A DNA stretch of 64,000 nucleotides from Pseudobdellovibrionaceae bacterium (GCA_023954155.1 JAMLIO010000008.1:5229-69228); one strand, 5' to 3'. Positions 10,953 to 54,377 are shown, counted from the first letter of the stretch. The notes: generated from the letters alone by a model not told the origin. Made by a program: numbers and translations.

Positions 10953-11055
10953 AAACACTCCTAGGTTTCTAAATTACTGTATCTGTCTTGCGGATGGCAA
11001 GAGTTCTGGTATCTTTAGGGCTAAAGATTTTGAATTCCAGTATTAGGGGGCAAAT

Positions 11056-15528: not shown

Positions 15529-15544
15529 AATGTGTTCTCCTTAT

Positions 15545-15622
15545 GGGACGAGATACGTAATTGATATTACATATCTGATTATAGGGCGAGATTTGTAATT
15601 GATATTATATATCTGAATTCAA
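15545..15622. promoter_or_regulatory. two tandem ~39-bp direct repeats, each containing an 11-4-11 palindrome, in the leader/promoter of the ltaE-like/kynA operon
   Basis: Copy 1 is GGGACGAGATACGTAATTGATATTACATATCTGATTATA and copy 2 is GGGCGAGATTTGTAATTGATATTATATATCTGAATTCA. The palindrome in copy 1 is AGATACGTAAT-TGAT-ATTACATATCT. Confidence 0.5.
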
Positions 15623-16681: not shown

Positions 16682-17359
16682 TTACTTGATGCCCAGTAGA
16701 AGTCCCCAATGGTAATTGGAAAACTGACCTTGTTGGTTTTGTGGTGGAGAGACGGTGCGGTACTTTTCTGTTGTTAAAGCTAAAGGGATTTTAACCTGAG
16801 TGTTTAAGAGTTCACCCGTGGCATTGGTCTCTTGAATGGTTAAGGCCAAATGGTCTACAGTTTCCATCTTATCCTGAGCGCGCGGTTTAGCGTGCACCAG
16901 AGACACCCCAAGTAACGTGCCTTTCACTACAGAGGAACTTTGAATTTCTGCCCCACGCCCTTCCCAAAATACAAACTGTACTGTTTGCCCCTGACGGGTT
17001 GAAGGGAATGAAAGGCTTTTTAAATATCCTATAAGGCTTGGGGTGTTAATGCTGTAAAAAGAGCCTTCAAGCTTTAGAGCTTCAAAAATTGGATCTAAAC
17101 TTTTCTCCCCATTCTGGTTCCATTTCGCGCGCGTTGATTCTGTACTTTTGAGAGGAATGGTATTGGTGGAAAGAGGCGTATCTATCTTATTGTTCCGAGA
17201 GATATAAAACCTCACACTGGGGTCTAAAAAGTCAGTAGTAGAACTTGGGTTAGGGACTGTAATCTCTTTTAAATACCCTAAACAAGCGGCATTAGCCCAA
17301 GACAGCGTAGGGGTGATAAGTGTCAATAAGATACACATGGAAAACACACTTTTTGTCAT
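16682..17359 (-). CDS. secreted hypothetical protein (225 aa)
   Basis: Signal peptide MTKSVFSMCILLTLITPTLSWA. The mature N-terminus NAACLGYL resembles that of the 7744-8268 protein. Confidence 0.5.
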   Translation of the reverse strand: MTKSVFSMCILLTLITPTLSWANAACLGYLKEITVPNPSSTTDFLDPSVRFYISRNNKIDTPLSTNTIPLKSTESTRAKWNQNGEKSLDPIFEALKLEGSFYSINTPSLIGYLKSLSFPSTRQGQTVQFVFWEGRGAEIQSSSVVKGTLLGVSLVHAKPRAQDKMETVDHLALTIQETNATGELLNTQVKIPLALTTEKYRTVSPPQNQQGQFSNYHWGLLLGIK

Positions 17360-17452
17360 CTTTACCTCAGTAATTTCAATAAGTTAGAACTTATACCCTT
17401 TTCCTTACCAATAATCCAGCAATAAAAGTGCCATTCTATTGGGGGGGCTTGG

Positions 17453-17597
17453 GTTCGGGTTGGATTTGGAGATTATTTTATGTGCACTCAAAATGCTCAG
17501 ACAGTGACGTTTGGCATGCTTTTGCGTTCGCAAAAGAATGCCAAGCCGAACTCGCATTTTGACCACACATAAAATAATCTCCAAATCCAACCCGAAC
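17453..17597. repeat. rod-like hairpin element, copy 1 (conserved core reads on the minus strand)
   Basis: 17453-17484 is the exact reverse complement of 17566-17597 (32 bp). The interior 81 nt folds further and is 92% identical over 75 nt to the core of the 33651-33791 element. Confidence 0.85.
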
Positions 17598-17694
17598 GCC
17601 AGGCCGAGTGAGGGACTTTATCTGGGCTTACAGATGCTTGGGGTATGTGGTGAGGATTGGTTTTATGAGAAACAGACATGAGTGCCGTCTATTC

Positions 17695-18807
17695 TTACTG
17701 AGAGTTATCTTTTTTTAGTTCAGAGATAATAGTGGCTTTGAAAGGGTTTAATTTTTCTCCTAGGTCTAAAGTTTCTAGGGTGGGGATCAGTTCTGTGGCT
17801 TTTAAGTTAAGGGCCATGATAAGCGCATTGCGTTTTAGGCCGAAGCCTCGAGGGCGAGTCAGTGGGGTGCTTGCAAACTGTTTTTCTAGGCTTTTATGAG
17901 AGGAGTTTAAAATTTCAAGAATAGTTTTTAAACTGTGCGCTCGACTCCACTGTGCTGAGGGAGGCGAGGTGGGTTGATGTTTGTATTCAAAGACTTTTTG
18001 ATTCCAGGGGCAAACATCTTGGCAGATGTCACAACCAAAAAACCAAGTACCAAATTTTTTAGCCAGTGCAAGCGGTGGGGTGGTTTTGGCTTCAATGGTC
18101 CAATAGGAAATGCACTTGCTGGCATCAAGTTTAGTTTTAGTGGGGGAGTCAGAATCTACACTTAGAGCTTCAGTGGGACAGGCTTCAATGCACTTGGTGC
18201 ACTTTCCACAACGATCAGGGTGAACAGTGATGTCAGGCAAGGCGGAACTTAAGGGCAGACTGGTGATGATTTCGCCAATTAAAAAAAAGCTGCCTTTGTG
18301 AGAGTGAATGACACAGGTGTTTTTACCAAACCAACCAAGGCCCGCCTGGTAAGCAAAATCTCTTTCCATAATGGGTTGAGAGTCCGTGGCAGGCAAAAAA
18401 TGGTGATGCGGGAAGGTTGATTTTAATTTCTCACAGGCCTGTTGCAGTTTATGTTTAAACCAATAATGGTAGTCTATCCCTTGAGCGTACTTGGCGATAT
18501 GAAACGCTTGGTTCACATCATTAAGACTTTCATGGGGTTCAGGGTGATGAAAGTAAGACTCGGTGACAACAATGGTGCTCTGGGCATCAGGCAGAATGTG
18601 TTTAAGGTCTTTTTTGGTTTCAAGATGATCTCGGAGGTAGTGCATCTGTGCGTTTAGACCTTCATCGAGCCAATTTTGGTAAAAGGACATCGAAACAGGG
18701 GTGGTCAGAGGCAGGGCGCTCACCTGATCAAAAGAAAATTCAGTAAGTAAACTCTGGATTTGTTCTCTCACCAGATGACACTTATAATGAGAAGCATGGA
18801 CGGTCAA
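17695..18807 (-). CDS. queG: epoxyqueuosine reductase
   Basis: Two ferredoxin-type clusters are present (CGKCTKCIEACP and CDICQDVCPWN), with QueG-like N-terminal and HEAT-like C-terminal regions. The ORF-track start is TTG, so the exact start is uncertain. Confidence 0.8.
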   Translation of the reverse strand: MTVHASHYKCHLVREQIQSLLTEFSFDQVSALPLTTPVSMSFYQNWLDEGLNAQMHYLRDHLETKKDLKHILPDAQSTIVVTESYFHHPEPHESLNDVNQAFHIAKYAQGIDYHYWFKHKLQQACEKLKSTFPHHHFLPATDSQPIMERDFAYQAGLGWFGKNTCVIHSHKGSFFLIGEIITSLPLSSALPDITVHPDRCGKCTKCIEACPTEALSVDSDSPTKTKLDASKCISYWTIEAKTTPPLALAKKFGTWFFGCDICQDVCPWNQKVFEYKHQPTSPPSAQWSRAHSLKTILEILNSSHKSLEKQFASTPLTRPRGFGLKRNALIMALNLKATELIPTLETLDLGEKLNPFKATIISELKKDNSQ

Positions 18808-32397: not shown

Positions 32398-33411
32398 TTA
32401 ATTATTATGCGGACTCCACTGCTTACCCATAGATATAATTTTATTTATAAGTTCAATATAAGATATTCCTATAGACTTAGCACTCATAGCAAAGTCTTCA
32501 AATTCCGAAATATCGGGATTGGGGTTGGCTTCTAAAATGTAAATGTCTTCGTTTTCTGAGACTCTTAAATCCATGCGCGCATAACCACTAAGCCCTAAGA
32601 TTTGATATGCTTTTTTTGAAATCTTTTGCAGTAGGGCGGCTTGAGCTTCTGAAATTTCGGCAGGTCCAGTTTGAATGCCGTTTCGTTTGCGATAACTTTC
32701 ATTAAATTTAGCATTTGTAGTGTACCACTGGTTTTCTGGGTCCACATCTTTATTAAATTTCAATTGCCACACAGGCAAAGCTTGCAGGCGGTAGTTTCCC
32801 ATAACCCCTACAAAAAACTCTTGGCCTTGAATGAACTCTTCAGCAATGGCATCAGTCTTAAAATTTTCGTGGATGAACTTCACGCGCTCTTTAAGCTTTT
32901 CATCATTTTTAACAATAGAAGCTTGGGAAAGTCCCAAAGAGGCCTCTTCGTTTAAACATTTTACGATCACAGGAAAACTATCTATTTTCACTTTAGTCTG
33001 AGGCGTATTTAAGGGAAAGACCTGAAACTCTGCCGACTTGATCTTGTGAAAGGCCAAGATCTTTTTAGATAAGGCCTTATCCCTAGCTAAAATCAGTCCC
33101 TTAGGATTGCACCCCGTATAAGGTATCCCTAAAAGTTCTAAGTGACTGACCACATTCTGATCCAGAGTGGCTTCACCATTAAACTCTTCAAGTAAATTAA
33201 AAACAATACTGGGTTTAAATTCAGAAATAGTATCAGTAATGATCTGTAGGTTCTCATACACCCCAAGAACATGCACATTATGACCCGCAGTAAGAAGAGC
33301 CTGCTTGACCTGATACTCTGTCACCCAAGGTGTATTATCCCAATCCACAATAGAAGGATCTTCAACCTCTGGCGGCACTAAATCCTGATGCACAAGCAAT
33401 AACACCTTCAT
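32398..33411 (-). CDS. D-alanine--D-alanine-ligase-like ATP-grasp enzyme of unknown substrate
   Basis: Pre-ATP-grasp N-domain. ARDKALSKKIL, PVIVKCLNEEASLG, AEEFIQGQEF and YILEANPNP match the ATP-grasp layout. It lacks normal ddl (murein) gene context. Confidence 0.65.
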   Translation of the reverse strand: MKVLLLVHQDLVPPEVEDPSIVDWDNTPWVTEYQVKQALLTAGHNVHVLGVYENLQIITDTISEFKPSIVFNLLEEFNGEATLDQNVVSHLELLGIPYTGCNPKGLILARDKALSKKILAFHKIKSAEFQVFPLNTPQTKVKIDSFPVIVKCLNEEASLGLSQASIVKNDEKLKERVKFIHENFKTDAIAEEFIQGQEFFVGVMGNYRLQALPVWQLKFNKDVDPENQWYTTNAKFNESYRKRNGIQTGPAEISEAQAALLQKISKKAYQILGLSGYARMDLRVSENEDIYILEANPNPDISEFEDFAMSAKSIGISYIELINKIISMGKQWSPHNN

Positions 33412-33650
33412 AAAAAAGCCACCCTTCTTAATATATTACACGACGAAGCTAAGAGTTTGTAAAGACTAGAATAAAAAGAAACCCCAAAACAACAAAAGAA
33501 ATCAACAGATCGTTTTTAATTCAAAAATATTTAAAGATAACGAAAACACACAATATCAAGCGTTTGATAATTAAAAGCTTAACATTAAAAATTTAAAATT
33601 TCACTAAGACAAAGAAAACAACTTCACTCACTTTACCCGATTAACTGAGA

Positions 33651-33791
33651 CTTTGGGTCTTGGGGTGGGGATTTTCTATATATGGTCGAAATGCGAGTTC
33701 GGCTTGGCGTGATTTTGCGAACGCAAAATCATGACAAACGTCACTGTCTGAGCATTTTATATATAGAAAATCCCCACCCCAAGACCCAAAG
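33651..33791. repeat. rod-like hairpin element, copy 2 (conserved core reads on the plus strand)
   Basis: 33651-33683 is the exact reverse complement of 33759-33791 (33 bp). The 75-nt core 33684-33758 matches the reverse complement of the 17485-17565 core at 69 of 75 positions. Confidence 0.85.
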
Positions 33792-33794
33792 GGG

Positions 33795-34829
33795 CTACAT
33801 TTTGATTCCCATTTTACCTGAGTAAATTAAATTCATATTATAGATACAAAGCATAGAAACAAGTTCAAGACTGGTCGTCTTTTCAGTTTTAATCAGAAAG
33901 GCTTTGTTCTCTTTGCAAAATTCAAGGATCTCGTCATACATCTGCCCAAGGGTGTAGGCGTCTTGCCCCGTCCACTTGGACAGAGTTTCAAGAATATGTG
34001 GCCGCTCTTTTTTTAAAAACACAGCAGCAGATTTGTTTTTCTTATAAGCTGTGGACGAAGAAAATAAATGAAACACAATAGGGGTCAGATCCATTTTTTC
34101 TTCAGAAGATAAATAAGACATTTGGTCATGATAAAAGGTCTTTAGTTTTTTTGTGCTTTTGACAATGTTTCCTGGACGTTTTCTGACAAACACCTTGGGG
34201 CTTTTGCCTTTAATGCCCTTCATGGTTTGATCCACGAACTTTAATTTTTCTAAAGCCAGAGGCCAATTTTTATATTTGCTCTTCCATTTAGACGAGGGGC
34301 TTAGCCAAGTGGCAAAGGTCTCGGCCCAATCCTCATCGGGATGAGCTTGGGCGTACCAAGGGTTAATGTGGCTAACAAAATTTTTATAGTTCAATCTTGG
34401 GTAATAGGATTCAGGGTATGGCGCCGAGGACAAACCAAAAAGTTTTTGTCGTTTGCGTGACATTCTTAAATGGAAGGCGTTGTCTATGGCATGTCCCGCT
34501 TCATGGCGCAAAACCCGCATACAGTCTTTGGGGTCAGCACCTTCGGGTGGAGCACCCATGATCGCCGCATGCAGGGCGATCAATCGAGGATGAACCAGAT
34601 AAAAGGGCACGGCAATGCCAGGCACTCCATCAGTGGCGTACCACTCGCTAGCAATCCAAAAGTGAGGTTTAAATCTTAAATCTTTTTCAGAAAGTTCTTT
34701 ATAAAGAGCCTTAATAAAAGGAGTCAGACGCGAGTGACGAAGAGACAAGTTCAGATCGCAAAAGCGTAACTCTAAAAGCTCTTTATCAGTAAGAGAGGTC
34801 CACCAGTCCGTCTTTTGTCTTTTTGCCAT
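33795..34829 (-). CDS. cytoplasmic HExxH putative zinc metallopeptidase-like protein
   Basis: VLRHEAGHAIDNAF (HExxH), followed downstream by HPDEDWAETFATW. No signal peptide. Confidence 0.55.
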   Translation of the reverse strand: MAKRQKTDWWTSLTDKELLELRFCDLNLSLRHSRLTPFIKALYKELSEKDLRFKPHFWIASEWYATDGVPGIAVPFYLVHPRLIALHAAIMGAPPEGADPKDCMRVLRHEAGHAIDNAFHLRMSRKRQKLFGLSSAPYPESYYPRLNYKNFVSHINPWYAQAHPDEDWAETFATWLSPSSKWKSKYKNWPLALEKLKFVDQTMKGIKGKSPKVFVRKRPGNIVKSTKKLKTFYHDQMSYLSSEEKMDLTPIVFHLFSSSTAYKKNKSAAVFLKKERPHILETLSKWTGQDAYTLGQMYDEILEFCKENKAFLIKTEKTTSLELVSMLCIYNMNLIYSGKMGIKM

Positions 34830-34838
34830 AAAGCTGAT

Positions 34839-35234
34839 TTAGTCTTCGCAGAGTGTTTCTATCACGGACCATTTTCCTGCCCACAGTGTCCATTCGGTAC
34901 TGCAGAGGTAGTACTCATAACCCTTGCAGGGATAAATGGGGCCGTAGACTTTAGTGATCACGCTGAAATTTTTTAAAGCATGGGTCAGAAGGTTATCGGT
35001 AGTTTCAAACCCCTCAAGATAAAAATGTTTAAGTCCACAAGTCATTCCATGAGCATCTTGAAACAAATAAGACTCTAAGGAGGCTTCTGTCTCTTGCACC
35101 ACAGACGCAAGATCAAGTCCAGTGATGGTAAGCACCTCATTTTGACTTAAAGGTGTGACTGCGGCCTGGAGATTTTGTAGGTGTAAAAATAGGGGAATGG
35201 CAAACGCAAAAAATAGTGGGATTTGGTTTTTCAT
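34839..35234 (-). CDS. small secreted Cys-containing hypothetical protein
   Basis: ATG at 35234 (MKNQIPLFFAFAIPLFLHLQNLQA signal peptide) has AAGGA 6 nt upstream. The ORF-track start 35264 would overlap the GNAT gene. Confidence 0.5.
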   Translation of the reverse strand: MKNQIPLFFAFAIPLFLHLQNLQAAVTPLSQNEVLTITGLDLASVVQETEASLESYLFQDAHGMTCGLKHFYLEGFETTDNLLTHALKNFSVITKVYGPIYPCKGYEYYLCSTEWTLWAGKWSVIETLCED

Positions 35235-35254
35235 ATCTATCCTTTGTAAGGGCA

Positions 35255-35737
35255 TTAAGTCCAAATTCTACGTAATCGTTTATGCGGCCCAGAGCCTGGG
35301 ATGTCAAACTCTGCACCATGAATTTTAAAGCCAAAACTAGTATAGAGATTAAGAGCCGATATTCTGGCATTACACCAGATCATCTCGGCCTTGGGTTCGT
35401 TGTCAATCAGATGGTTGAACATCATTTCCAGTAGAGTATGGCCAATGCCTGAGCCTTGAAATTCAGGCAGCACGGCCATACCTCGAATCCTAAAGATGCG
35501 CTCTGATAACACCTCGTCCTCGTCTTCAGGAATCAAAGTGCCAACGCCCACAAGTTTCGCTCCTTCAAAGGCGCCAATATGTAGAGTGCGAGGGTGGAGG
35601 TCTTGGGCATAAGTGACCCGCTGGGGGGGGCCGTGGGGATGAAGAACGGCTTGTCTTAAGCCTAAAATGTCTTCAAGCATACTGGGGTCTAAAACCTTAA
35701 AACTTCTAGGGGGAATGTCGTTTTGCCAAAAGACCAT
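35255..35737 (-). CDS. GNAT-family N-acetyltransferase
   Basis: Acetyl-CoA loop context IRGMAVLPEFQGSGIGHTLL (Q/RxxGxG/A). Size is 160 aa. Contains a C8 homopolymer (35623-35630). Confidence 0.75.
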   Translation of the reverse strand: MVFWQNDIPPRSFKVLDPSMLEDILGLRQAVLHPHGPPQRVTYAQDLHPRTLHIGAFEGAKLVGVGTLIPEDEDEVLSERIFRIRGMAVLPEFQGSGIGHTLLEMMFNHLIDNEPKAEMIWCNARISALNLYTSFGFKIHGAEFDIPGSGPHKRLRRIWT

Positions 35738-48023: not shown

Positions 48024-50654
48024 TTATTCTGCGTCTACAGTTGCGGTAGAAGAGCCTGAAATAGAATTGTCTAGACTTTGTTGTTCTAGATGGATTTCAA
48101 ACTCGGTCTCAGTATCGGGAAGATCAAGCTCGACACGAAAGTGCCCTTCATGCGCTTGTGTTGCAGTCGCATAACACTCAGTGCTGAGCGTGTGGTTGTA
48201 AGCATTATCCCCTGTCATTGTGATATTGACGTCACCCATTAAATGTCCATGAGTGCACTCACCAAAGAGTACGGCTTTAGTGGGTGAAACAGGCACTGTA
48301 GTGATTCCTGCGTCCAAAGAAATGTGCACCGACACGGGAAGCGAAGTGGCTAAAGACTCAAGTTCAATATCGTGCTGAGTGCGGTTGTCAGCCAGGTCAT
48401 CATGCTCGTAGGACAGTTCTACAAGTGCGGCATCACTAAGAAAGATGACCGCAGAGTACTCGTTGTTTTCACAAGTCGTGGTCACAGTCGTTCCTGGAGG
48501 AGTGGCTTTTAACACCACGTCCTTACCATTATCAGAACAATCCCCTTGAATCAGTCTATACCCAGGATAGTATTCAAAGTTCATAGCATTAAAGGTATCC
48601 AGAGTGATCAAGATTTGACTGTCTAAAATGTAAGACAGACCTGTATCTATGCAGGCCGTGCTTTGACTATTAGCAGTCACAATCACAAAAAATTCATGTA
48701 GCCCATCATCGCTGCCGTCATTTTCAAAGTTTAAAGTGGCAGTGACTTCACCTGCTGCAATACTAGAAGAGACTCCAAGCTCTTGTGTGCAATTGCTGTC
48801 AGCATACACAGTCATAAGTCCTCCATCGGCATTAGTGACTGTACCTGATAGAACAGGACTTACAGATGACGACGTGGCGGGTGTGGTTTGTGGATAGAGA
48901 GGATTTCCATCAGCAATTTGTAGTGCTAATGCGGGCGCATTAGGTGGCGGAGCCACAACAGTCAGAGACATGCTGCCACTGGCATTAGTGTTGCCCGCTT
49001 TATCTGTTTGATGAAAGGTCACGGTCATGGTTTTTGGAGTCGCAGGGAAGGTGACCGCTTGACTATAAGCACCTGCCACACAACCTGTAGAATAGCTTGC
49101 GCCATCCACTGTCAGATCCACAGGCAGGCCGTTTTCGCAAGCCCCTTCTAAAGTTTGAGCGCTTCCTGTTAAATAAGTGTCCACACTATTGTGCGAAGTC
49201 AAAGTCACCACAGGAGCCCCAGTATCAAGAATAAAACTCAGACCCGTGTTATGACAACCGCTAGGGTTGGTATGAGAGGTGGACATAGTGACAAGCCCAT
49301 AGAGTTCATAAAGTCCATCGGTATCTAAATTTAAAGTCACATTCACCACATCCCCAGCGCCCACAACAGTGTCAGTGAGCTTTGTAGAACATGTGTTATC
49401 TGTAAACAGTTCTAATGTTCCCCCAGCTCCTTTAACCACTGTGCCTGAAATCACAGGGTTGACTCCTGCAGTATGAGGAGGATTCTCAGATGGAAATGCA
49501 GGGTTGCCTGGTTGCAAAGTGATGGACAAGGTAGGATCAGACGGTGGGATCACGTAGGTCACACTGTCAGTGGCCGTTACAGGCGTCATATAGTTATTAG
49601 TTTGTGACGCTGTTAAATTGATAAGAGGCTGATCATTAAAGGTCACATTGGTAGAGAAAGTCCCTCCATAAGTTGAAACCCCATCGGTAATACAATTTAC
49701 AGATACTGGAGAAGCAATATCACCTGTTAAAGTCACCTGACTCATTTCTGCGTGAACTGTGCAAGCACCGCTGACTGTTGTTGTGCTGGCACTGACACCG
49801 CTGTTATCCGCAGGACTAGTGATCGCAAGATTGATGCTAGGCGGAGGAGGTAAGGTCAAATTGATGGACCTATTGGTTGTGGCACTTTCATTTCCTGCGG
49901 CATCGGTGGACATAAATTGGTAAGAGATCGTAGCTACATCAGCAGGAAGAGTGATATTGATACTGAACTCATCGTCTACACAATTGGCCACTTCTTCTTG
50001 AGGCACTGCAGAACCAAAATTAAACTTCACAGGGGCTCCACTTTCACAAAATCCAGAAAAGGTCTGTGTTGATGTAGCATAAAAACTGGCATTATTAACC
50101 GGAGCGGTTAGTAAAGGTTCAGGGGCATGTGTATCTAAAGTATAAGTAAGTCCTGTGTCGACGCATCCTCCAGGATTTGGAACATTTCCAGGGGCAAGCA
50201 CTTTGGCGTAGTAATGATGGACACCATCAAAATTTTGTCCAATTTCCATATACATCAAAATGACTTCTACATCGCCACTGGCATCGAGCATGATAGACTC
50301 AATAGGTGCGCCTGTGCAGGTGTTGTCATTGTCATAAATATAAAGCATGGCTCCATCCGCATTGCTTACTGTTCCTGTAATGGTCACGGCAGTTTGATTT
50401 GCTGTGATGGGAGTTGTGGGCAATTCAGGGTTTCCATGAACCACATCAAACTCAAGATCAGGGTCGCCAGGAGGAGGTAAAGTATCCACTGTTAAAGTTA
50501 AAGATTTAGAGGTCGTATTGTTAGCAGCATCGACTTGGGAGTAATTGATAAGAAGTGATCCAGGACTGCTAGGGAAGGTCACACTTTGGGCAAAGGTGCT
50601 GCTGGCACAGGTCACCGTGTAAGATGTGCCACCGACATCTAAAGCCACATTCAA
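48024..50654 (-). CDS. C-terminal portion of the giant repetitive Ig-like surface protein (first ATG after the in-frame TGA; the frame is actually open from 50669)
   Basis: It has the same three-module repeat units as the upstream ORF (DTxAP linkers, F/L-x-G-x-CE-[NS]G motifs). It has no signal peptide of its own and no SD. Confidence 0.6.
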   Translation of the reverse strand: MNVALDVGGTSYTVTCASSTFAQSVTFPSSPGSLLINYSQVDAANNTTSKSLTLTVDTLPPPGDPDLEFDVVHGNPELPTTPITANQTAVTITGTVSNADGAMLYIYDNDNTCTGAPIESIMLDASGDVEVILMYMEIGQNFDGVHHYYAKVLAPGNVPNPGGCVDTGLTYTLDTHAPEPLLTAPVNNASFYATSTQTFSGFCESGAPVKFNFGSAVPQEEVANCVDDEFSINITLPADVATISYQFMSTDAAGNESATTNRSINLTLPPPPSINLAITSPADNSGVSASTTTVSGACTVHAEMSQVTLTGDIASPVSVNCITDGVSTYGGTFSTNVTFNDQPLINLTASQTNNYMTPVTATDSVTYVIPPSDPTLSITLQPGNPAFPSENPPHTAGVNPVISGTVVKGAGGTLELFTDNTCSTKLTDTVVGAGDVVNVTLNLDTDGLYELYGLVTMSTSHTNPSGCHNTGLSFILDTGAPVVTLTSHNSVDTYLTGSAQTLEGACENGLPVDLTVDGASYSTGCVAGAYSQAVTFPATPKTMTVTFHQTDKAGNTNASGSMSLTVVAPPPNAPALALQIADGNPLYPQTTPATSSSVSPVLSGTVTNADGGLMTVYADSNCTQELGVSSSIAAGEVTATLNFENDGSDDGLHEFFVIVTANSQSTACIDTGLSYILDSQILITLDTFNAMNFEYYPGYRLIQGDCSDNGKDVVLKATPPGTTVTTTCENNEYSAVIFLSDAALVELSYEHDDLADNRTQHDIELESLATSLPVSVHISLDAGITTVPVSPTKAVLFGECTHGHLMGDVNITMTGDNAYNHTLSTECYATATQAHEGHFRVELDLPDTETEFEIHLEQQSLDNSISGSSTATVDAE

Positions 50655-50669
50655 TCCAGATTCACAGCT

Positions 50670-53600
50670 TCAAGAAAGAGTTTGCATGGAAGACACAAGA
50701 TACGTGCTAGCAGCAGAGTGAGAGGTGAGGTTCACATCAGGAGCTTGAGTGTCTAAGACATAAGACACTTCAAGGTCTAAACAGTCAGATTGAAAACTTC
50801 CTGAAGACACCTGTGCATAATAGCTGTGTAAGCCATCATCTGATCCATCATTATTATAGCTTGTACCCAAAACAATTTCACCACTTGGAGGCACAGTCTG
50901 TGTGGCTATGGCCGTACCAGTACACATGGCATCTTCAAAAAGTGAAAGTGTGAGACCTTCGGCCTCGGGTAAAGTTCCTGTCAAAGAAGGAGTTGTGTCG
51001 GCACTCACTGGAGGATCAGAAGGAATATTAGGATTTCCTGGGTCCAAATTCATGGTAAAGACCGCATCGAAATTCAACAACACATACGTCATTTGTAAAG
51101 AAGGGTAGAGTGTGCCGTCAGAAATCTTTTGTTGTCGGGCTCTAAGAGTCGGAGAAGCAACGGGATTAAAGACCACCTCTGCCTCAAAAGTTCCCCCATA
51201 ATCACTGCCATCACTGATACAAGGCGTGAACACTGAATTGTTGATTTCACCAAAAATTTCAACTGTTGAAATGTCAGGATGGTAAGCACAAGTTCCAGAA
51301 ATGGTGGTTTCCATTAAATGAGTCACAGTGCTTCCGCCGCTAGGAGATGTGATGGCTACGCTTACTGAAGTCGGAGGAGGAAGGGTGATATTGACCGTGA
51401 TGCTATCTAGAGCGGTGTTTCCCGCAGCATCGGTTTGACCAAAACTAAGAGTTGTACTTCCTAAAGTCGAGGGGAATGTAAGGACTCTGTTATAGGTCCC
51501 TGATGCGCAAGTGGCTGTATGGCTTACACCACCCACATTCAGATCCACCTGAGCTCCATTTTCACACGCTCCTTGCAGAGTTTGGCTGGAGTTGGCGTAA
51601 TAAGAATTCCCTTCCGTATGAGAAGTCAAAGTCACTGTAGGCGCTATAGTGTCTAAAGTGTAAGAGAGTCCTGTATCAAAACATCCCGAGGGATTTGTTT
51701 GTCCATTTTGTGCTGCCACTTGCGCGTAGTAATGATGAAGACCATCGTCAGTGCCATCATTATCATAAGTTAAACTTAAGTTGATCACTCCTGTGGAGGA
51801 CACAGAGGACGTCTGCACCATGACCGCGCACATCGTATCTTCAAAAATCTGAATGGTGCCGTTGTTTGCTCTTTCTACTGTACCCGAAATGACAGGGGCG
51901 GTGTCTTTAGAAACAGCTCCTGCGGGAGTGACAGTCAAAGTCAGTGTAGGATCAGTCGGTGCTACGTAGTACTGTCTGCTGGCCGAGTTGCTTTCAGCAT
52001 CAAAATTATTTGTTTGAGTGGCTGTGAGCGTAGGTGAAGAGACAGAGTTAAAAGTCACATACGTGGAATACATCCCCCCATAAGCACTTCCATCACTATT
52101 ACAAGGTGCATTCACGGTTGCTGTAATATCTCCAGTCAGCACCACAGGACTCATGTCTGAATGATAAGTACACACTCCACTAACAGCAGTAGGCACAGTA
52201 GGATCTACGGTGCTATGTTGTGCAGGAGCACTAATGGTGATTGTAATAGAAGAGGCAGGGGCTAGAGTTAAAGAGTAAGTGTGATTGATCTGTGTGGTGT
52301 TGTTCGCGGCATCGGCTTGAACTAAAGTGAGGTTGATCGAACTTCCTGCACTAGGAAAAAGAACATTTTGTGTAAACGCACCAGAAGCACACGTAGGTGT
52401 GAAGGACTGTCCTCCCACTGTAAGCTGAATAGGGGCGTCAGATTCACAACTTCCAGTAAAAGTTTGTAAAGACTCAAGGTAGTAGGTTTCTCCATGAGTA
52501 TGAGAGGTCAGAGTAAGAGCAGGAGCTGTGGTGTCCAGTTTATAACTTCCCACAGCCGTACAGCCACCCGCATTGGGTGTGCCATGAGAGTTGTGTAGAA
52601 TAGCATAAAAATGTTTATCGCCGTCATCTGAGCCATCATTTTGATAATTAAGACTTGTGATATTCACATTCCCATTAGAAGGAACACTGTAGCTTTGCAC
52701 TAACTGCGAACAACTGGGATCAGAATAAATAAAAAGAGTTCCTAAGGTGGCTAGAGACACTGTGCCCGTGATTGTAGGTGTAGTGTCGCGTGATGAAGGG
52801 GGAGTTGTGGTGTAAGTGGGGTGTCCTGCATCGTGATTTAAAGTTAAAGTCGTGGGATTAGCAGGGGCCACCTGATAGCTCACTGTGCTGGTGTAAGTTG
52901 TGTTGGTATCAGTTTTAATTTGTGTGGCAGTCAATGTGGGATTAGCTACAGTCGAAAATTGCAAGGAGGTGCTAAACGTTCCCCCATAAGCACTTCCGTC
53001 ACTGATACAGTTCGTGGTTGTTGTGCCCACAACGCTTCCAGTAAAGGTGATGGTGCTATTCATCACAGGGTGAGACGTACACGTTCCTGACACTGTGACA
53101 GGATTAGAAACGTCAATCACGCTCCCTGAGGCGGGAGAAGTGATAGCGATTTCAGGATTTGTGGGAGGCCCTAGAGTGAGTGTGAAGGTCACAGACTCAC
53201 TGGTGTTTAAATTAGCTAGGTCCGTTTGGGCAAAGGTCGCAGTGGTGGCGCCTGTAGATCCTGGTAAATTGAGCGAAGTGGAAAAGGCACTTGAACTGCA
53301 TGGGGCCTGATGAGTGCTGCCATCTAAAGTGATGTCGACAGGAGTTCCATTCTCACAAGTTCCCGAAAACAGAAGACTGCTTCCTGCGTAATAAGACTGC
53401 CCATTTTGAGGTGAGGCCACAGTAATAACAGGAGGTGTGGTGTCCAATCTGTACGATAATAAAGTGCTATAGCATCCCCCTGGATTTTGCACTCCGTTGA
53501 CGCCTGTTACTCGAGCATAAAATCTTTTAAGCCCATCAGCACTTCCATCGTTGGCAAAACTGATGTTGGTGATATTGAGATTTCCTCCCGAAGGAATGGT

Positions 53601-54377
53601 TTGTGAACCTATGACAGGAGTGGCACATAATGAATCGGCAAAGATCTCAATGCTTCCGCCGTCAGCATCTGCAACGGTACCTGTAAGAACAGGAGTGTTG
53701 TCGGCACTGACACGAGGGTCAGAAGGGAAATTGGGATTTCCTGCAGAAATATTTAATGTCAAAGTTGGATGTCCAGGGACTGTGTTGTCAAAATCATAAG
53801 TGGCGCTATCTGTTCCTGTGTTACCTGCAAGATCAGTTTGCGAGGCGATAAGTTCTCTTTGTCCCACAGTGGGCAATAAATTAAATTGGACTGTGGCAGT
53901 GAACTGTCCAGACTCAAGACAAGGGATGTTGATGCCGCTTTGTAAGTCCCCAGTCAGAGCCACCAGAAGACCTGCTTCACAAGTTCCAGACACACTCACT
54001 TGCACACCGACAAAACCACCATTAGCAGGATGAGTGATGCTCACTGCAGGAGGAGTGGTATCAAAAATGATTTGGGCTGTAGCACTGTACGTGTCTTGTG
54101 TGGCTTCTAGATCGGTTTGAGCTTGATCTACGGTGATATCAGCTTCGTATTGACCGTCTGTACACGTCAGTGTCAGAGGGGAACCCGTAAAATTGCCAGT
54201 GACTGTCACTGTTAAGTCGTCAAGTTTATCCTGACAGACCCCCGAAATATGAACCGCAGCCACATTGGTGTGTGAGGGAGCGACAAGAGTAAATCGTTCA
54301 GCGCTGTTATTACTAGTAAAGCCACCGCAACCAGTGACAAAGGATAAAAGTATTACTCCCCAGAGCAAACGGACCAT
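50670..54377 (-). CDS. N-terminal portion of the giant repetitive Ig-like surface lipoprotein
   Basis: Lipobox in MVRLLWGVILLSFVTGC. About 300-aa super-repeats are delimited by LDTT(P/A)P linkers at aa 106, 312, 615 and further on. Ends at TGA 50670-50672 in the middle of a repeat. Confidence 0.75.
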   Translation of the reverse strand: MVRLLWGVILLSFVTGCGGFTSNNSAERFTLVAPSHTNVAAVHISGVCQDKLDDLTVTVTGNFTGSPLTLTCTDGQYEADITVDQAQTDLEATQDTYSATAQIIFDTTPPAVSITHPANGGFVGVQVSVSGTCEAGLLVALTGDLQSGINIPCLESGQFTATVQFNLLPTVGQRELIASQTDLAGNTGTDSATYDFDNTVPGHPTLTLNISAGNPNFPSDPRVSADNTPVLTGTVADADGGSIEIFADSLCATPVIGSQTIPSGGNLNITNISFANDGSADGLKRFYARVTGVNGVQNPGGCYSTLLSYRLDTTPPVITVASPQNGQSYYAGSSLLFSGTCENGTPVDITLDGSTHQAPCSSSAFSTSLNLPGSTGATTATFAQTDLANLNTSESVTFTLTLGPPTNPEIAITSPASGSVIDVSNPVTVSGTCTSHPVMNSTITFTGSVVGTTTTNCISDGSAYGGTFSTSLQFSTVANPTLTATQIKTDTNTTYTSTVSYQVAPANPTTLTLNHDAGHPTYTTTPPSSRDTTPTITGTVSLATLGTLFIYSDPSCSQLVQSYSVPSNGNVNITSLNYQNDGSDDGDKHFYAILHNSHGTPNAGGCTAVGSYKLDTTAPALTLTSHTHGETYYLESLQTFTGSCESDAPIQLTVGGQSFTPTCASGAFTQNVLFPSAGSSINLTLVQADAANNTTQINHTYSLTLAPASSITITISAPAQHSTVDPTVPTAVSGVCTYHSDMSPVVLTGDITATVNAPCNSDGSAYGGMYSTYVTFNSVSSPTLTATQTNNFDAESNSASRQYYVAPTDPTLTLTVTPAGAVSKDTAPVISGTVERANNGTIQIFEDTMCAVMVQTSSVSSTGVINLSLTYDNDGTDDGLHHYYAQVAAQNGQTNPSGCFDTGLSYTLDTIAPTVTLTSHTEGNSYYANSSQTLQGACENGAQVDLNVGGVSHTATCASGTYNRVLTFPSTLGSTTLSFGQTDAAGNTALDSITVNITLPPPTSVSVAITSPSGGSTVTHLMETTISGTCAYHPDISTVEIFGEINNSVFTPCISDGSDYGGTFEAEVVFNPVASPTLRARQQKISDGTLYPSLQMTYVLLNFDAVFTMNLDPGNPNIPSDPPVSADTTPSLTGTLPEAEGLTLSLFEDAMCTGTAIATQTVPPSGEIVLGTSYNNDGSDDGLHSYYAQVSSGSFQSDCLDLEVSYVLDTQAPDVNLTSHSAASTYLVSSMQTLS

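Follow-up and report, generated by a model that had tools for sequence, protein, structure and literature searches.

The locus considered here raises the question of whether a long hairpin in a bacterial chromosome is a structured RNA kept by selection or a piece of mobile DNA. A 64,000-nt stretch from a Pseudobdellovibrionaceae bacterium (the window, to which all coordinates refer unless a comparison locus is named by an L number) carries two copies of such a hairpin, 16 kb apart among syntenic housekeeping genes. Copy 2, 141 bases long, lies between a Peptidase_Mx gene, with its HExxH motif, and an ATP-grasp gene; copy 1, inverted relative to it, lies between queG and a gene for a hypothetical protein of 225 aa. 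Each has a central core enclosed by perfectly complementary arms. The reading that we prefer, tentatively and without holding it to be probable outright, is that the hairpin is an insertional element of Bdellovibrionota, rare, undescribed and non-autonomous, whose core is the selected part and whose arms are shaped at the DNA level.

Evidence that bears on this question comes from the orthologous sites of relatives. The window is a chromosome segment of 42% G+C with a housekeeping gene content (tRNA synthetases, a haem pathway cluster, mutS, glnD and fatty-acid oxidation genes), in an order that is syntenic with that of the relatives L004 and L007. Its QueG and Peptidase_Mx homologues assign the organism to Bdellovibrionota, and its own Peptidase_Mx protein is absent from the assembly index. 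Its closest relatives are uncultured organisms with 94% and 98% protein identity (GCA_964578435.1 / ERZ23499309 / ERZ27276804), and the next ones, at 72-75%, are represented by Logan assemblies. At site 1, between queG and the next gene, the intergenic region spans 335 nt in the window as against 95 nt in L001-L003 (94%), 110 nt in L004 (75%) and 142 nt in L045 (63%), the percentages in this comparison being the identity of the flanking proteins. At site 2, between the Peptidase_Mx and ATP-grasp genes, it spans 383 nt as against 134 nt in L005/L006 (98%), about 80 nt in L007-L010 (72-75%) and 12-16 nt in L030-L033 and L048 (61-67%). None of these relatives has the hairpin at the orthologous site, and the rest of the flanking intergenic DNA is almost the same as in the closest relative, including at site 2 the promoter TTTACA-N17-TAATAT. 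Since the hairpin is absent from the 94-98% relatives and from all the more distant ones, parsimony places both gains on the window's own branch; the comparison shows both copies to be recent insertions, later than the split from the 94-98% relatives. The absence of the insertion from close relatives at both sites also bears out the view of the original prediction, a note made from the window sequence before this analysis, that the element is tied to no particular mRNA leader.

The gain at each site amounts to ~240-250 nt, which comprises the hairpin and about 90-130 nt of extra DNA that is missing together with it from the closest relative. Read along the forward strand, the one with the conserved loop sequence GAGTTCGGC, this extra DNA is 5' to the hairpin at both sites. 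At site 1 an imperfect direct repeat of 13-14 nt brackets the 240-nt insertion, and L001 has a single copy of it (AGTGCCACCTTGTT); judged from its sequence this repeat could be a target duplication. The C-terminus of QueG reads KKDNSQ* in the window (17695-17715) and KNP* in L001 (2575-2595), the two differing exactly at the insertion boundary, and the last queG codons and the stop may have been exchanged in the course of the insertion.

The part that is shared between the copies is the core. As originally reported, the 75-nt core of copy 2 agrees with the reverse complement of copy 1 at 69 positions; blastn aligns 76 nt with 6 mismatches, and a repeat search extends the alignment to 85 nt at 89% identity. 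The identity of both internal-loop strands, GAGTTCGGC and ACGTCACTGTCTGA, was likewise confirmed, and the blocks AAATGCGAGTTCGGCTTGGC and CAAACGTCACTGTCTGAGCATTTT are also identical in the two copies, with 0 matches in shuffles even when 3 mismatches were allowed. Folding energies range from -78 to -100 kcal/mol over the two strands of the two copies (z -12.7 to -15.6 relative to shuffles). The 6 core substitutions are all confined to helices, the ~31 unpaired bases being free of them; one compensatory pair accounts for two of the six, and another two change G.U to A-U. In the apical helix, going from copy 1 to copy 2, the two favourable changes named in the original prediction are present (C-G to A-T, and a mismatch to G-C), but it had overlooked two positions that change in the opposite direction (G-C to a G.A mismatch, and A-T to G.T).

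A third member was recovered from a distant Bdellovibrionales metagenome-assembled genome (GCA_002778785.1; L023 4173-4290), where it forms a hairpin of 118 nt (-89 kcal/mol, z=-11.4) that is 100% identical in five independent assemblies. It has an identical 19-mer, AAATGCGAGTTCGGCTTGG, and the same overall architecture, with an apex GCGAGCGC where the window copies have GCGAACGC and a 3' side TGTTTGAGTATTT where they have TGTCTGAGCATTT. Its apical helix is almost wholly rewritten with retention of pairing, and its arms (GTTTTTAAAAGCGTCAGTTTCTTC) have no similarity to those in the window. Two co-directional genes flank it, a Wzy_C gene whose stop codon is 39 nt upstream and an HU-like gene 143 nt downstream. 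Over the three members the core can be summarized as ~70-75 nt in which AAAUGC pairs with GCAUUU, the 5' strand reads GAGUUCGGC, the apical helix has 16 bp and the 3' strand ends in UGUYUGA. The minimum-energy folds contain 13 G.U pairs on the forward strand as against 2 on the reverse (binomial p=0.007), mostly on the GAGTTCGGC/GAGUUCGGC strand and chiefly in L023. Full elements are also more stable on the forward than on the reverse strand (copy 2 -82.4/-77.8, copy 1 -89.1/-85.4 and L023 -75.9/-60.1 kcal/mol), an order that is unchanged in all three with DNA parameters. A covariance model of the three cores (R1) scores copy 2 at 100.8 bits on the plus and 21.5 bits on the minus strand, and copy 1 at 103.4 bits on the minus strand, with an overall range of 100-103 bits forward and 21-28 bits reverse. 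These observations support the presence, as far as sequence comparison can reveal it, of a selected fold in which loops are kept and helix changes are paired, and we infer that the core is the part under selection, acting as a single-strand fold of either DNA or RNA.

Such a pattern is also what speaks for a structured non-coding RNA gene family comprising the whole hairpin, arms included, with helices that covary under selection on the RNA; the arms might, for example, be a double-stranded processing stalk, as a substrate of RNase III, from which a conserved RNA of ~75 nt is released. We consider this unlikely, though it deserves the most serious attention among the alternatives. The conserved loop strands and variable paired helices, with 6/6 substitutions in the helices, the covarying apical helix of L023 and the one-sided distribution of G.U pairs (13 versus 2) agree with it, and L023, being apparently single-copy and identical in five samples, resembles a resident gene. 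Moreover, the variable extra DNA stands at the promoter position of the forward strand in both window copies, and that of copy 2 contains two weak sigma-70-like sites at 33564-33599 on the plus strand. Yet none of the three loci has a convincing promoter or terminator, the counts being within the range of shuffles, and at 2/3 loci the flanking genes run antisense to the forward strand. The emptiness of both orthologous sites in the relatives with 94-98% identity of the flanking proteins also stands against an RNA gene. In Rfam 15 only a tRNA passes the gathering threshold in the window, and permissive scans of the three loci returned weak hairpin-shaped matches to animal microRNAs, far below threshold. 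No Rfam family is thus matched; an exact match to a described repeat or non-coding RNA family had been named in the original prediction as what would take away its novelty. A ribozyme or other known RNA was rejected for want of Rfam support, and a resemblance to a tRNA T-arm was set aside, the tRNA-Leu of the window being unrelated. The conserved block could alternatively encode a small protein from an ATG inside AAATGCGAG (MRVRLG...), and all three members do have open reading frames (ORFs) of 44-50 codons that begin at this ATG; a gene caller also placed ORFs of 44-45 aa over the element in L034. However, the L023 peptide is unrelated past residue 9, the identity of the 19 conserved bases extends to synonymous positions, no ribosome-binding site is present, and a helix encloses the start codon. 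With its peptide not conserved, this ORF was rejected as probably not a gene, and coding capacity is the least credible account of the block.

The arms behave quite differently from the core. Each locus has its own arm pair of 24-33 bp. The perfection of the arms had been correctly described, with 33/33 complementary positions around 75 intervening nucleotides in copy 2 and 32 pairs in copy 1. The further claim that the arms of the two copies can be aligned at roughly two-thirds of positions did not hold: ungapped identity is 15/32 (shuffle p=0.08-0.12), and the gapped global score is equalled by 19% of composition-preserving shuffles (p=0.19), both window arms being G/T-rich. The inner ~14 bp do look related (GATT-TTCTATATAT versus GATTATTTTATGTG, 11/14 by eye). 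The statement that every arm substitution is mirrored on the partner arm presupposes a homology that cannot be shown; from their sequences, the arms of copies 1 and 2 would appear to be simply different palindromes, and compensation between them is unproven. Across the three members the arms contain 88 Watson-Crick pairs and 1 G.U pair, the corresponding numbers for the helices of the core being 71 and 12 (Fisher p=0.0009). Helices selected as RNA should contain G.U pairs, as the core does, and the wobble-free arms thus point either to youth or to symmetrization at the DNA level. A ratio of 1/89 in the arms, as against 12/83 in the core, is not expected from selection at the RNA level alone, so that the perfection of the arms does not support selection on RNA structure. 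The original proposal of such selection for the entire hairpin is consequently supported for the core, with its helix-confined substitutions, covariation in L023 and one-sided G.U pairs, and unsupported for the arms. Mechanically produced symmetry had itself been named at the outset as an argument against selection on structure, and the arms bear the mark of DNA palindromes that are young or were symmetrized mechanically.

A mechanism of this kind is known. Polymerase template switching at inverted repeats homogenizes and lengthens arms (in one case from 5 to 16 bp) and inverts spacers (PMC8604942), and quasipalindrome template switching has been followed in Escherichia coli assays (PMC7202029). 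The stable core hairpin would be a good nucleus for template switching, which would account for perfect, locus-specific arms. The same capacity of inverted-repeat spacers to flip weakens what had been concluded from the opposite orientation of the core in the two copies. Within ~278 kb of Bdellovibrionota DNA every perfect palindrome of at least 17 bp encloses this core, and the loci added after that set contributed one unrelated inverted repeat of 24 bp (L045/L047). No arm k-mer of at least 13 recurs elsewhere in the window, and arms as guides or targets were rejected on this ground. At site 2 the sequence from the Peptidase_Mx stop codon onwards is TAG-ACG-CCTTTGGTTGGTGGA in the closest relative L005 and TAG-C-CCTTTGGGTCTTGGGGTGGGGA in the window, L005 thus having an arm-like CCTTTGG directly 3' of the stop. 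In L007 (75%) the stop is directly followed by CCAAGACCTCAAAG, one edit from the end of the other window arm (CCAAGACCCAAAG), to which there is one near-match elsewhere in the 278 kb. These junctions are suggestive, and offer a lead only: an outer arm may derive from local DNA, or the junctions may be deletion scars of an older hairpin.

Two further readings turn on the origin of the arms. The core might be a single-stranded mobile module which, at each insertion, turns the flanking DNA of its target into a fresh perfect palindrome by an inverted target duplication resulting from hairpin-primed (snap-back) synthesis or template switching. Inverted target duplication, if true, would explain why the arms differ at each locus and resemble the local sequence of the empty site. 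We know of no description of it as an insertion mechanism of bacterial elements, and we hold this reading to be improbable. Improbable too is that the mobile unit is the core, with ~7-14 bp of inner repeats, and that it targets the loops of existing hairpins such as terminators, the outer arms being native. All three copies do sit just 3' of a gene, the usual place of a terminator; the L023 arms (TTTTTAAAAGCGTCAG...CTGACGCTTTTAAAAA) are laid out like a bidirectional terminator; at site 2 a canonical terminator is present in L008 (AAGGCGTAAGCCTT, then a T-run), and L044 has one after queG. Against such targeting, the empty sites of the closest relatives (L001 and L005) contain no palindrome, the window arms are 32-33 bp long and G-rich with no T-run after them, and the window and its syntenic loci have no coreless palindrome >14 bp save the unrelated 24-bp repeat of L045.

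Searches for more members covered genome, viral and metagenome collections by scans for exact 18- to 23-base matches, with counts taken among the matches listed. The 18-mer AATGCGAGTTCGGCTTGG gave 15 Joint Genome Institute metagenome matches among those listed, of which one (L023) is a true member; the other 14 were rejected as chance matches in coding, GC-rich and hairpin-free DNA, for example L018, inside a 654-aa ORF with a fold z=-0.3, and L025 and L029 in GC-rich coding DNA. All 4 genome matches to the 18-mer ACGTCACTGTCTGAGCAT were likewise due to chance. The two-loop pattern GAGTTCGGC-N25-45-ACGTCACTGTCTGA was absent from the genome, viral and metagenome collections in an exact scan, of two further viral scans one gave no match and the other chance matches only, and blastn against phages and plasmids returned nothing below E=2. 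In ~280 kb of Bdellovibrionota DNA no additional copy was recovered by blastn-short, a perfect-hairpin scan or the covariance model. A covariance-model scan of the kind proposed in the original prediction, run with R1 on 281 kb and the window with filters off, does find the three known copies and no more. The one true 18-mer match suggests that GCA_002778785.1 carries a single copy. A literature search for a described Bdellovibrio palindromic repeat gave nothing relevant. No transposase, integrase, recombinase or reverse transcriptase is encoded among the window ORFs scanned, so that the co-occurring gene of this kind envisaged at the outset did not appear; the lack of a transposase, reverse transcriptase or recombinase in the window speaks for a non-autonomous element.

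Comparison with known systems places the element, by analogy, closest to the REPINs and other hairpin elements recognized in single-stranded DNA, with the layout inverted such that the centre is kept and the arms are free. Like REPINs, which are mobilized by RAYT/TnpA-REP tyrosine transposases of the HUH-Y1 type, it is intergenic, non-autonomous, of ~100-150 bp, able to form a long hairpin in single-stranded DNA or mRNA and devoid of an adjacent transposase, and it would move in trans through a single-strand form. REPIN hairpins are kept by compensatory changes (PMC3116915), a further likeness to the present element. They differ in that the repetitive extragenic palindrome (REP) arms are conserved and recognized and the spacer is variable, whereas here the centre is conserved and the arms are locus-specific; perhaps in copy number, which is tens to hundreds as against the 2 seen in 64 kb and apparently 1 in a second genome; and in that the three copies here have no GTAG-type REP motif in common. 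The window encodes no RAYT (Y1 HUH transposase). The Correia/NEMIS, ERIC, RUP and BOX elements, bacterial miniature elements with stable hairpin transcripts, are comparable as small palindromic intergenic insertions that are present or absent between close strains and can influence the ends of mRNAs whichever way they are oriented, but their terminal inverted repeats are conserved and their target duplications defined, in contrast to the unrelated termini and the ambiguous target duplication found here.

That contrast extends to an ordinary MITE (miniature inverted-repeat transposable element), where terminal inverted repeats bound by a transposase would carry the core as a passenger and the copies would be diverged subfamilies. 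Presence/absence polymorphism at orthologous sites in close relatives, the intergenic location, the size of 118-161 bp and the possible 13-14 bp target duplication at site 1 agree with a MITE, and the 24-bp inverted repeat of L045 indicates MITE-like insertions in the clade. Yet conserved terminal repeats are lacking: conservation is lowest at the termini and highest in the interior, with arm similarity in the window at the level of composition and unrelated arms in L023; site 2 and L023 have no target duplication, and no transposase is encoded in the window. The original prediction's judgement that this is not a typical MITE, given that the arms are not conserved between copies, is therefore upheld, and we give the MITE reading little credence.

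Integron attC sites share with the element the primacy of structure over sequence, arms that are complementary within a site and different between sites, a strand-specific single-strand fold with unpaired bases and a similar size range (57-141 nt). However, they have conserved outer boxes (RYYYAAC / GTTRRRY) around a variable centre; these boxes are absent here, the ends being CTTTGGG...CCCAAAG in copy 2 and GTTCGGG...CCCGAAC in copy 1, and neither window copy is accompanied by a cassette array or an integrase. The subterminal hairpins of IS200/IS605 and of their miniature derivatives, the palindrome-associated transposable elements (PATEs), resemble the core in being imperfect hairpins with mismatches and unpaired bases; they are recognized on one strand as single-stranded DNA, as proposed for the core, and insertion without target duplication would be a further likeness. 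IS200/IS605 elements differ in having two different end hairpins with conserved cleavage motifs rather than a single core hairpin in long arms, and the window encodes neither their TnpA nor TnpB. Quasipalindrome template switching after the Ripley model would fit the perfect arms, the outer arms that look like local flanks and a possible flip of the core, all without selection. It is, however, a mutational process and not an element; it gives no account of a core shared by two genomes or of a net gain of ~240-250 nt, and the documented arms and spacers are much shorter. No intrinsic terminator, with a G+C-rich stem and a U-run, is present at any of the three loci, a partial resemblance being confined to L023, where A and T tracts lie within the arms. 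As to retrons, the window ORFs scanned contain no reverse transcriptase domain, and the neighbours are queG, a hypothetical gene, Peptidase_Mx and ATP-grasp. The hairpin thus fails to display the defining features of REPINs, MITEs, attC sites, terminators, retrons or any Rfam family.

Returning to the preferred reading of a non-autonomous insertional element, we propose that a factor with its gene elsewhere would recognize the core in single-stranded form and move or copy it. The arms would be perfect either in that each insertion is young or through homogenization and outward extension over the local flanks by polymerase template switching, acting at a quasipalindrome nucleated by the stable core hairpin. 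For the host the outcome might be a very stable stem-loop between co-directional genes, serving in either orientation as a 3'-end barrier or insulator. Several observations weigh against this reading. No enzyme among the window ORFs scanned was identified as the mover of the element. The reading does not account for the extra segments, which have no homology to each other or to the other loci compared, and the lack at site 2 and L023 of a direct repeat like that of site 1 leaves target duplication ambiguous. The strand asymmetry comes mostly from L023, and the core of copy 1 folded by itself has no strand bias (-30.7 versus -31.8 kcal/mol). The similarity of empty-site segments to the arms is not significant in a composition-controlled shuffle test (p=0.06-0.4), and the remnants in L005 and L007 could mean that an older hairpin at site 2 was lost by deletion. 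Finally, the exact-match scans bring the known copies, among the matches listed, to three in two distantly related genomes, and one true 18-mer match against a repeatedly sampled genome is unlike an active repeat family. On three copies from such scans, a mobile DNA element and an RNA gene cannot be told apart.

The features of the two window copies are collected in the table. The genes said in the original prediction to flank copy 2 are those present, with small corrections to the distances: the hairpin ends 3 nt, not 4, from the Peptidase_Mx stop codon and lies 239 nt, not 240, upstream of the ATP-grasp start.

Features of the hairpin copies, their flanking genes and the rejected small ORF (window positions except where L023 is named)
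Feature	Position	Strand	Remarks
Copy 2 left arm CTTTGGGTCTTGGGGTGGGGATTTTCTATATAT, 33 bp	33651-33683	.	100% complementary to 33759-33791
Copy 2 core, 75 nt	33684-33758	forward (GAGTTCGGC) strand on +	69/75 identical to copy 1
Copy 2 bulge GGTC	33684-33687
Copy 2 helix S1	33688-33694 / 33752-33758
Copy 2 5' loop strand GAGTTCGGC	33695-33703
Copy 2 apical helix	33704-33719 / 33722-33737
Copy 2 3' loop strand ACGTCACTGTCTGA	33738-33751
Copy 2 right arm, 33 bp	33759-33791	.
Extra AT-rich segment beside copy 2, about 115-130 nt	33520-33650	.	5' of hairpin on forward strand
Copy 1, whole	17445-17605		inverted relative to copy 2
Copy 1 arm GTTCGGGTTGGATTTGGAGATTATTTTATGTG, 32 bp	17453-17484		perfect
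Copy 1 second arm, 32 bp	17566-17597
Copy 1 imperfect outer arm extension	17445-17452 / 17598-17605
Copy 1 core, 81 nt	17485-17565	forward strand on -	R1 103.4 bits on -
Copy 1 loop strand GAGTTCGGC	17553-17545
Copy 1 loop strand ACGTCACTGTCTGA	17510-17497
Extra segment beside copy 1	17606-17680	.	5' of hairpin on forward strand
Direct repeat AGTGCCATTCTATT	17427-17440	.	pairs with 17681-17693
Direct repeat AGTGCCGTCTATT	17681-17693	.	1 nt from queG stop codon
Peptidase_Mx (HExxH) gene	33795-34829	-	stop codon 33795-33797; flanks copy 2
ATP-grasp gene	32398-33411	-	flanks copy 2
queG	17695-18807	-	stop codon 17695-17697; flanks copy 1
225-aa hypothetical gene	16682-17359	-	flanks copy 1
Small ORF MRVRLG... 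in copy 2	33691-33828	+	rejected
Small ORF MRVRLG... in copy 1	17405-17557	-	rejected
Small ORF MRVRLG... in L023	L023 4199-4333	+	rejected

The genes flanking copy 2 form a conserved pair in which Peptidase_Mx is accompanied by an ATP-grasp protein of the D-Ala-D-Ala-ligase-like type (window 32398-35737, L007-L010, L030-L033 and L048), with a GNAT acetyltransferase gene and a small hypothetical gene upstream. The spacing of 12-16 nt in distant relatives is operon-like; in the clade of the window the spacer is enlarged and has its own promoter, TTTACA-N17-TAATAT, for the ATP-grasp gene. At site 1 a sigma-54-type promoter (TGGCAC-N5-TTGC, 17419-17433 on the minus strand) lies 60 nt 5' of the 225-aa gene and is kept in L001 (TGGCAC..TTGC), L004 and L045. 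Copy 1 ends ~10 nt upstream of it, and the direct repeat at this site duplicates its -24 box. In L044, a 66% relative, a bidirectional terminator (ATAAAAAAGGGAAC-CTAAA-GTTCCCTTTTTTAT, 11020-11052) follows queG, and the gene downstream encodes a superoxide dismutase, not the 225-aa protein, which implies that the site-1 region has been rearranged among the relatives. The inverted repeat of L045 (8583-8730, equivalent to L047 1015-1162) has perfect 24-bp arms, CTGGCCCACAATAAGTTGGTCAAA, around a non-palindromic spacer of 100 nt; it lies between the genes for a DUF481 protein and the CCA-adding enzyme, one arm overlapping the last 4 codons of the latter, and, being unrelated to the hairpin, shows that this clade also harbours perfect-arm insertions of other kinds. 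Elsewhere in the window, two tandem direct repeats of 38 nt that are 82% identical (TCTCCTTATGGGACGAGATACGTAATTGATATTACATA and a variant, 15536-15611) are placed between the genes for a beta-eliminating lyase and an arginase-family protein. Two ORFs of 876 and 1235 aa without a Pfam match (48024-54377, minus strand) contain internal DNA repeats ~880-906 nt apart (51186, 52068 and 52974) and 1518 nt apart (50199 and 51717), and may encode repetitive surface or secreted proteins.

The hairpin also holds a lesson of method, in that wobble-free perfect complementarity argues for symmetrization at the DNA level and against covariation of an RNA. Small palindromic repeats of bacteria are normally defined by their conserved ends, and the layout described here is the reverse, a conserved centre with a strand-specific fold set in a different perfect palindrome at each locus. 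Long perfect palindromes are normally unstable in bacterial chromosomes. If the arms come from local DNA, this family would provide a record of how such palindromes arise and would point to a partner protein that recognizes the core. If it is RNA instead, the hairpin would represent a new conserved RNA of the predatory Bdellovibrio-like bacteria, with an unusual double-stranded stalk.

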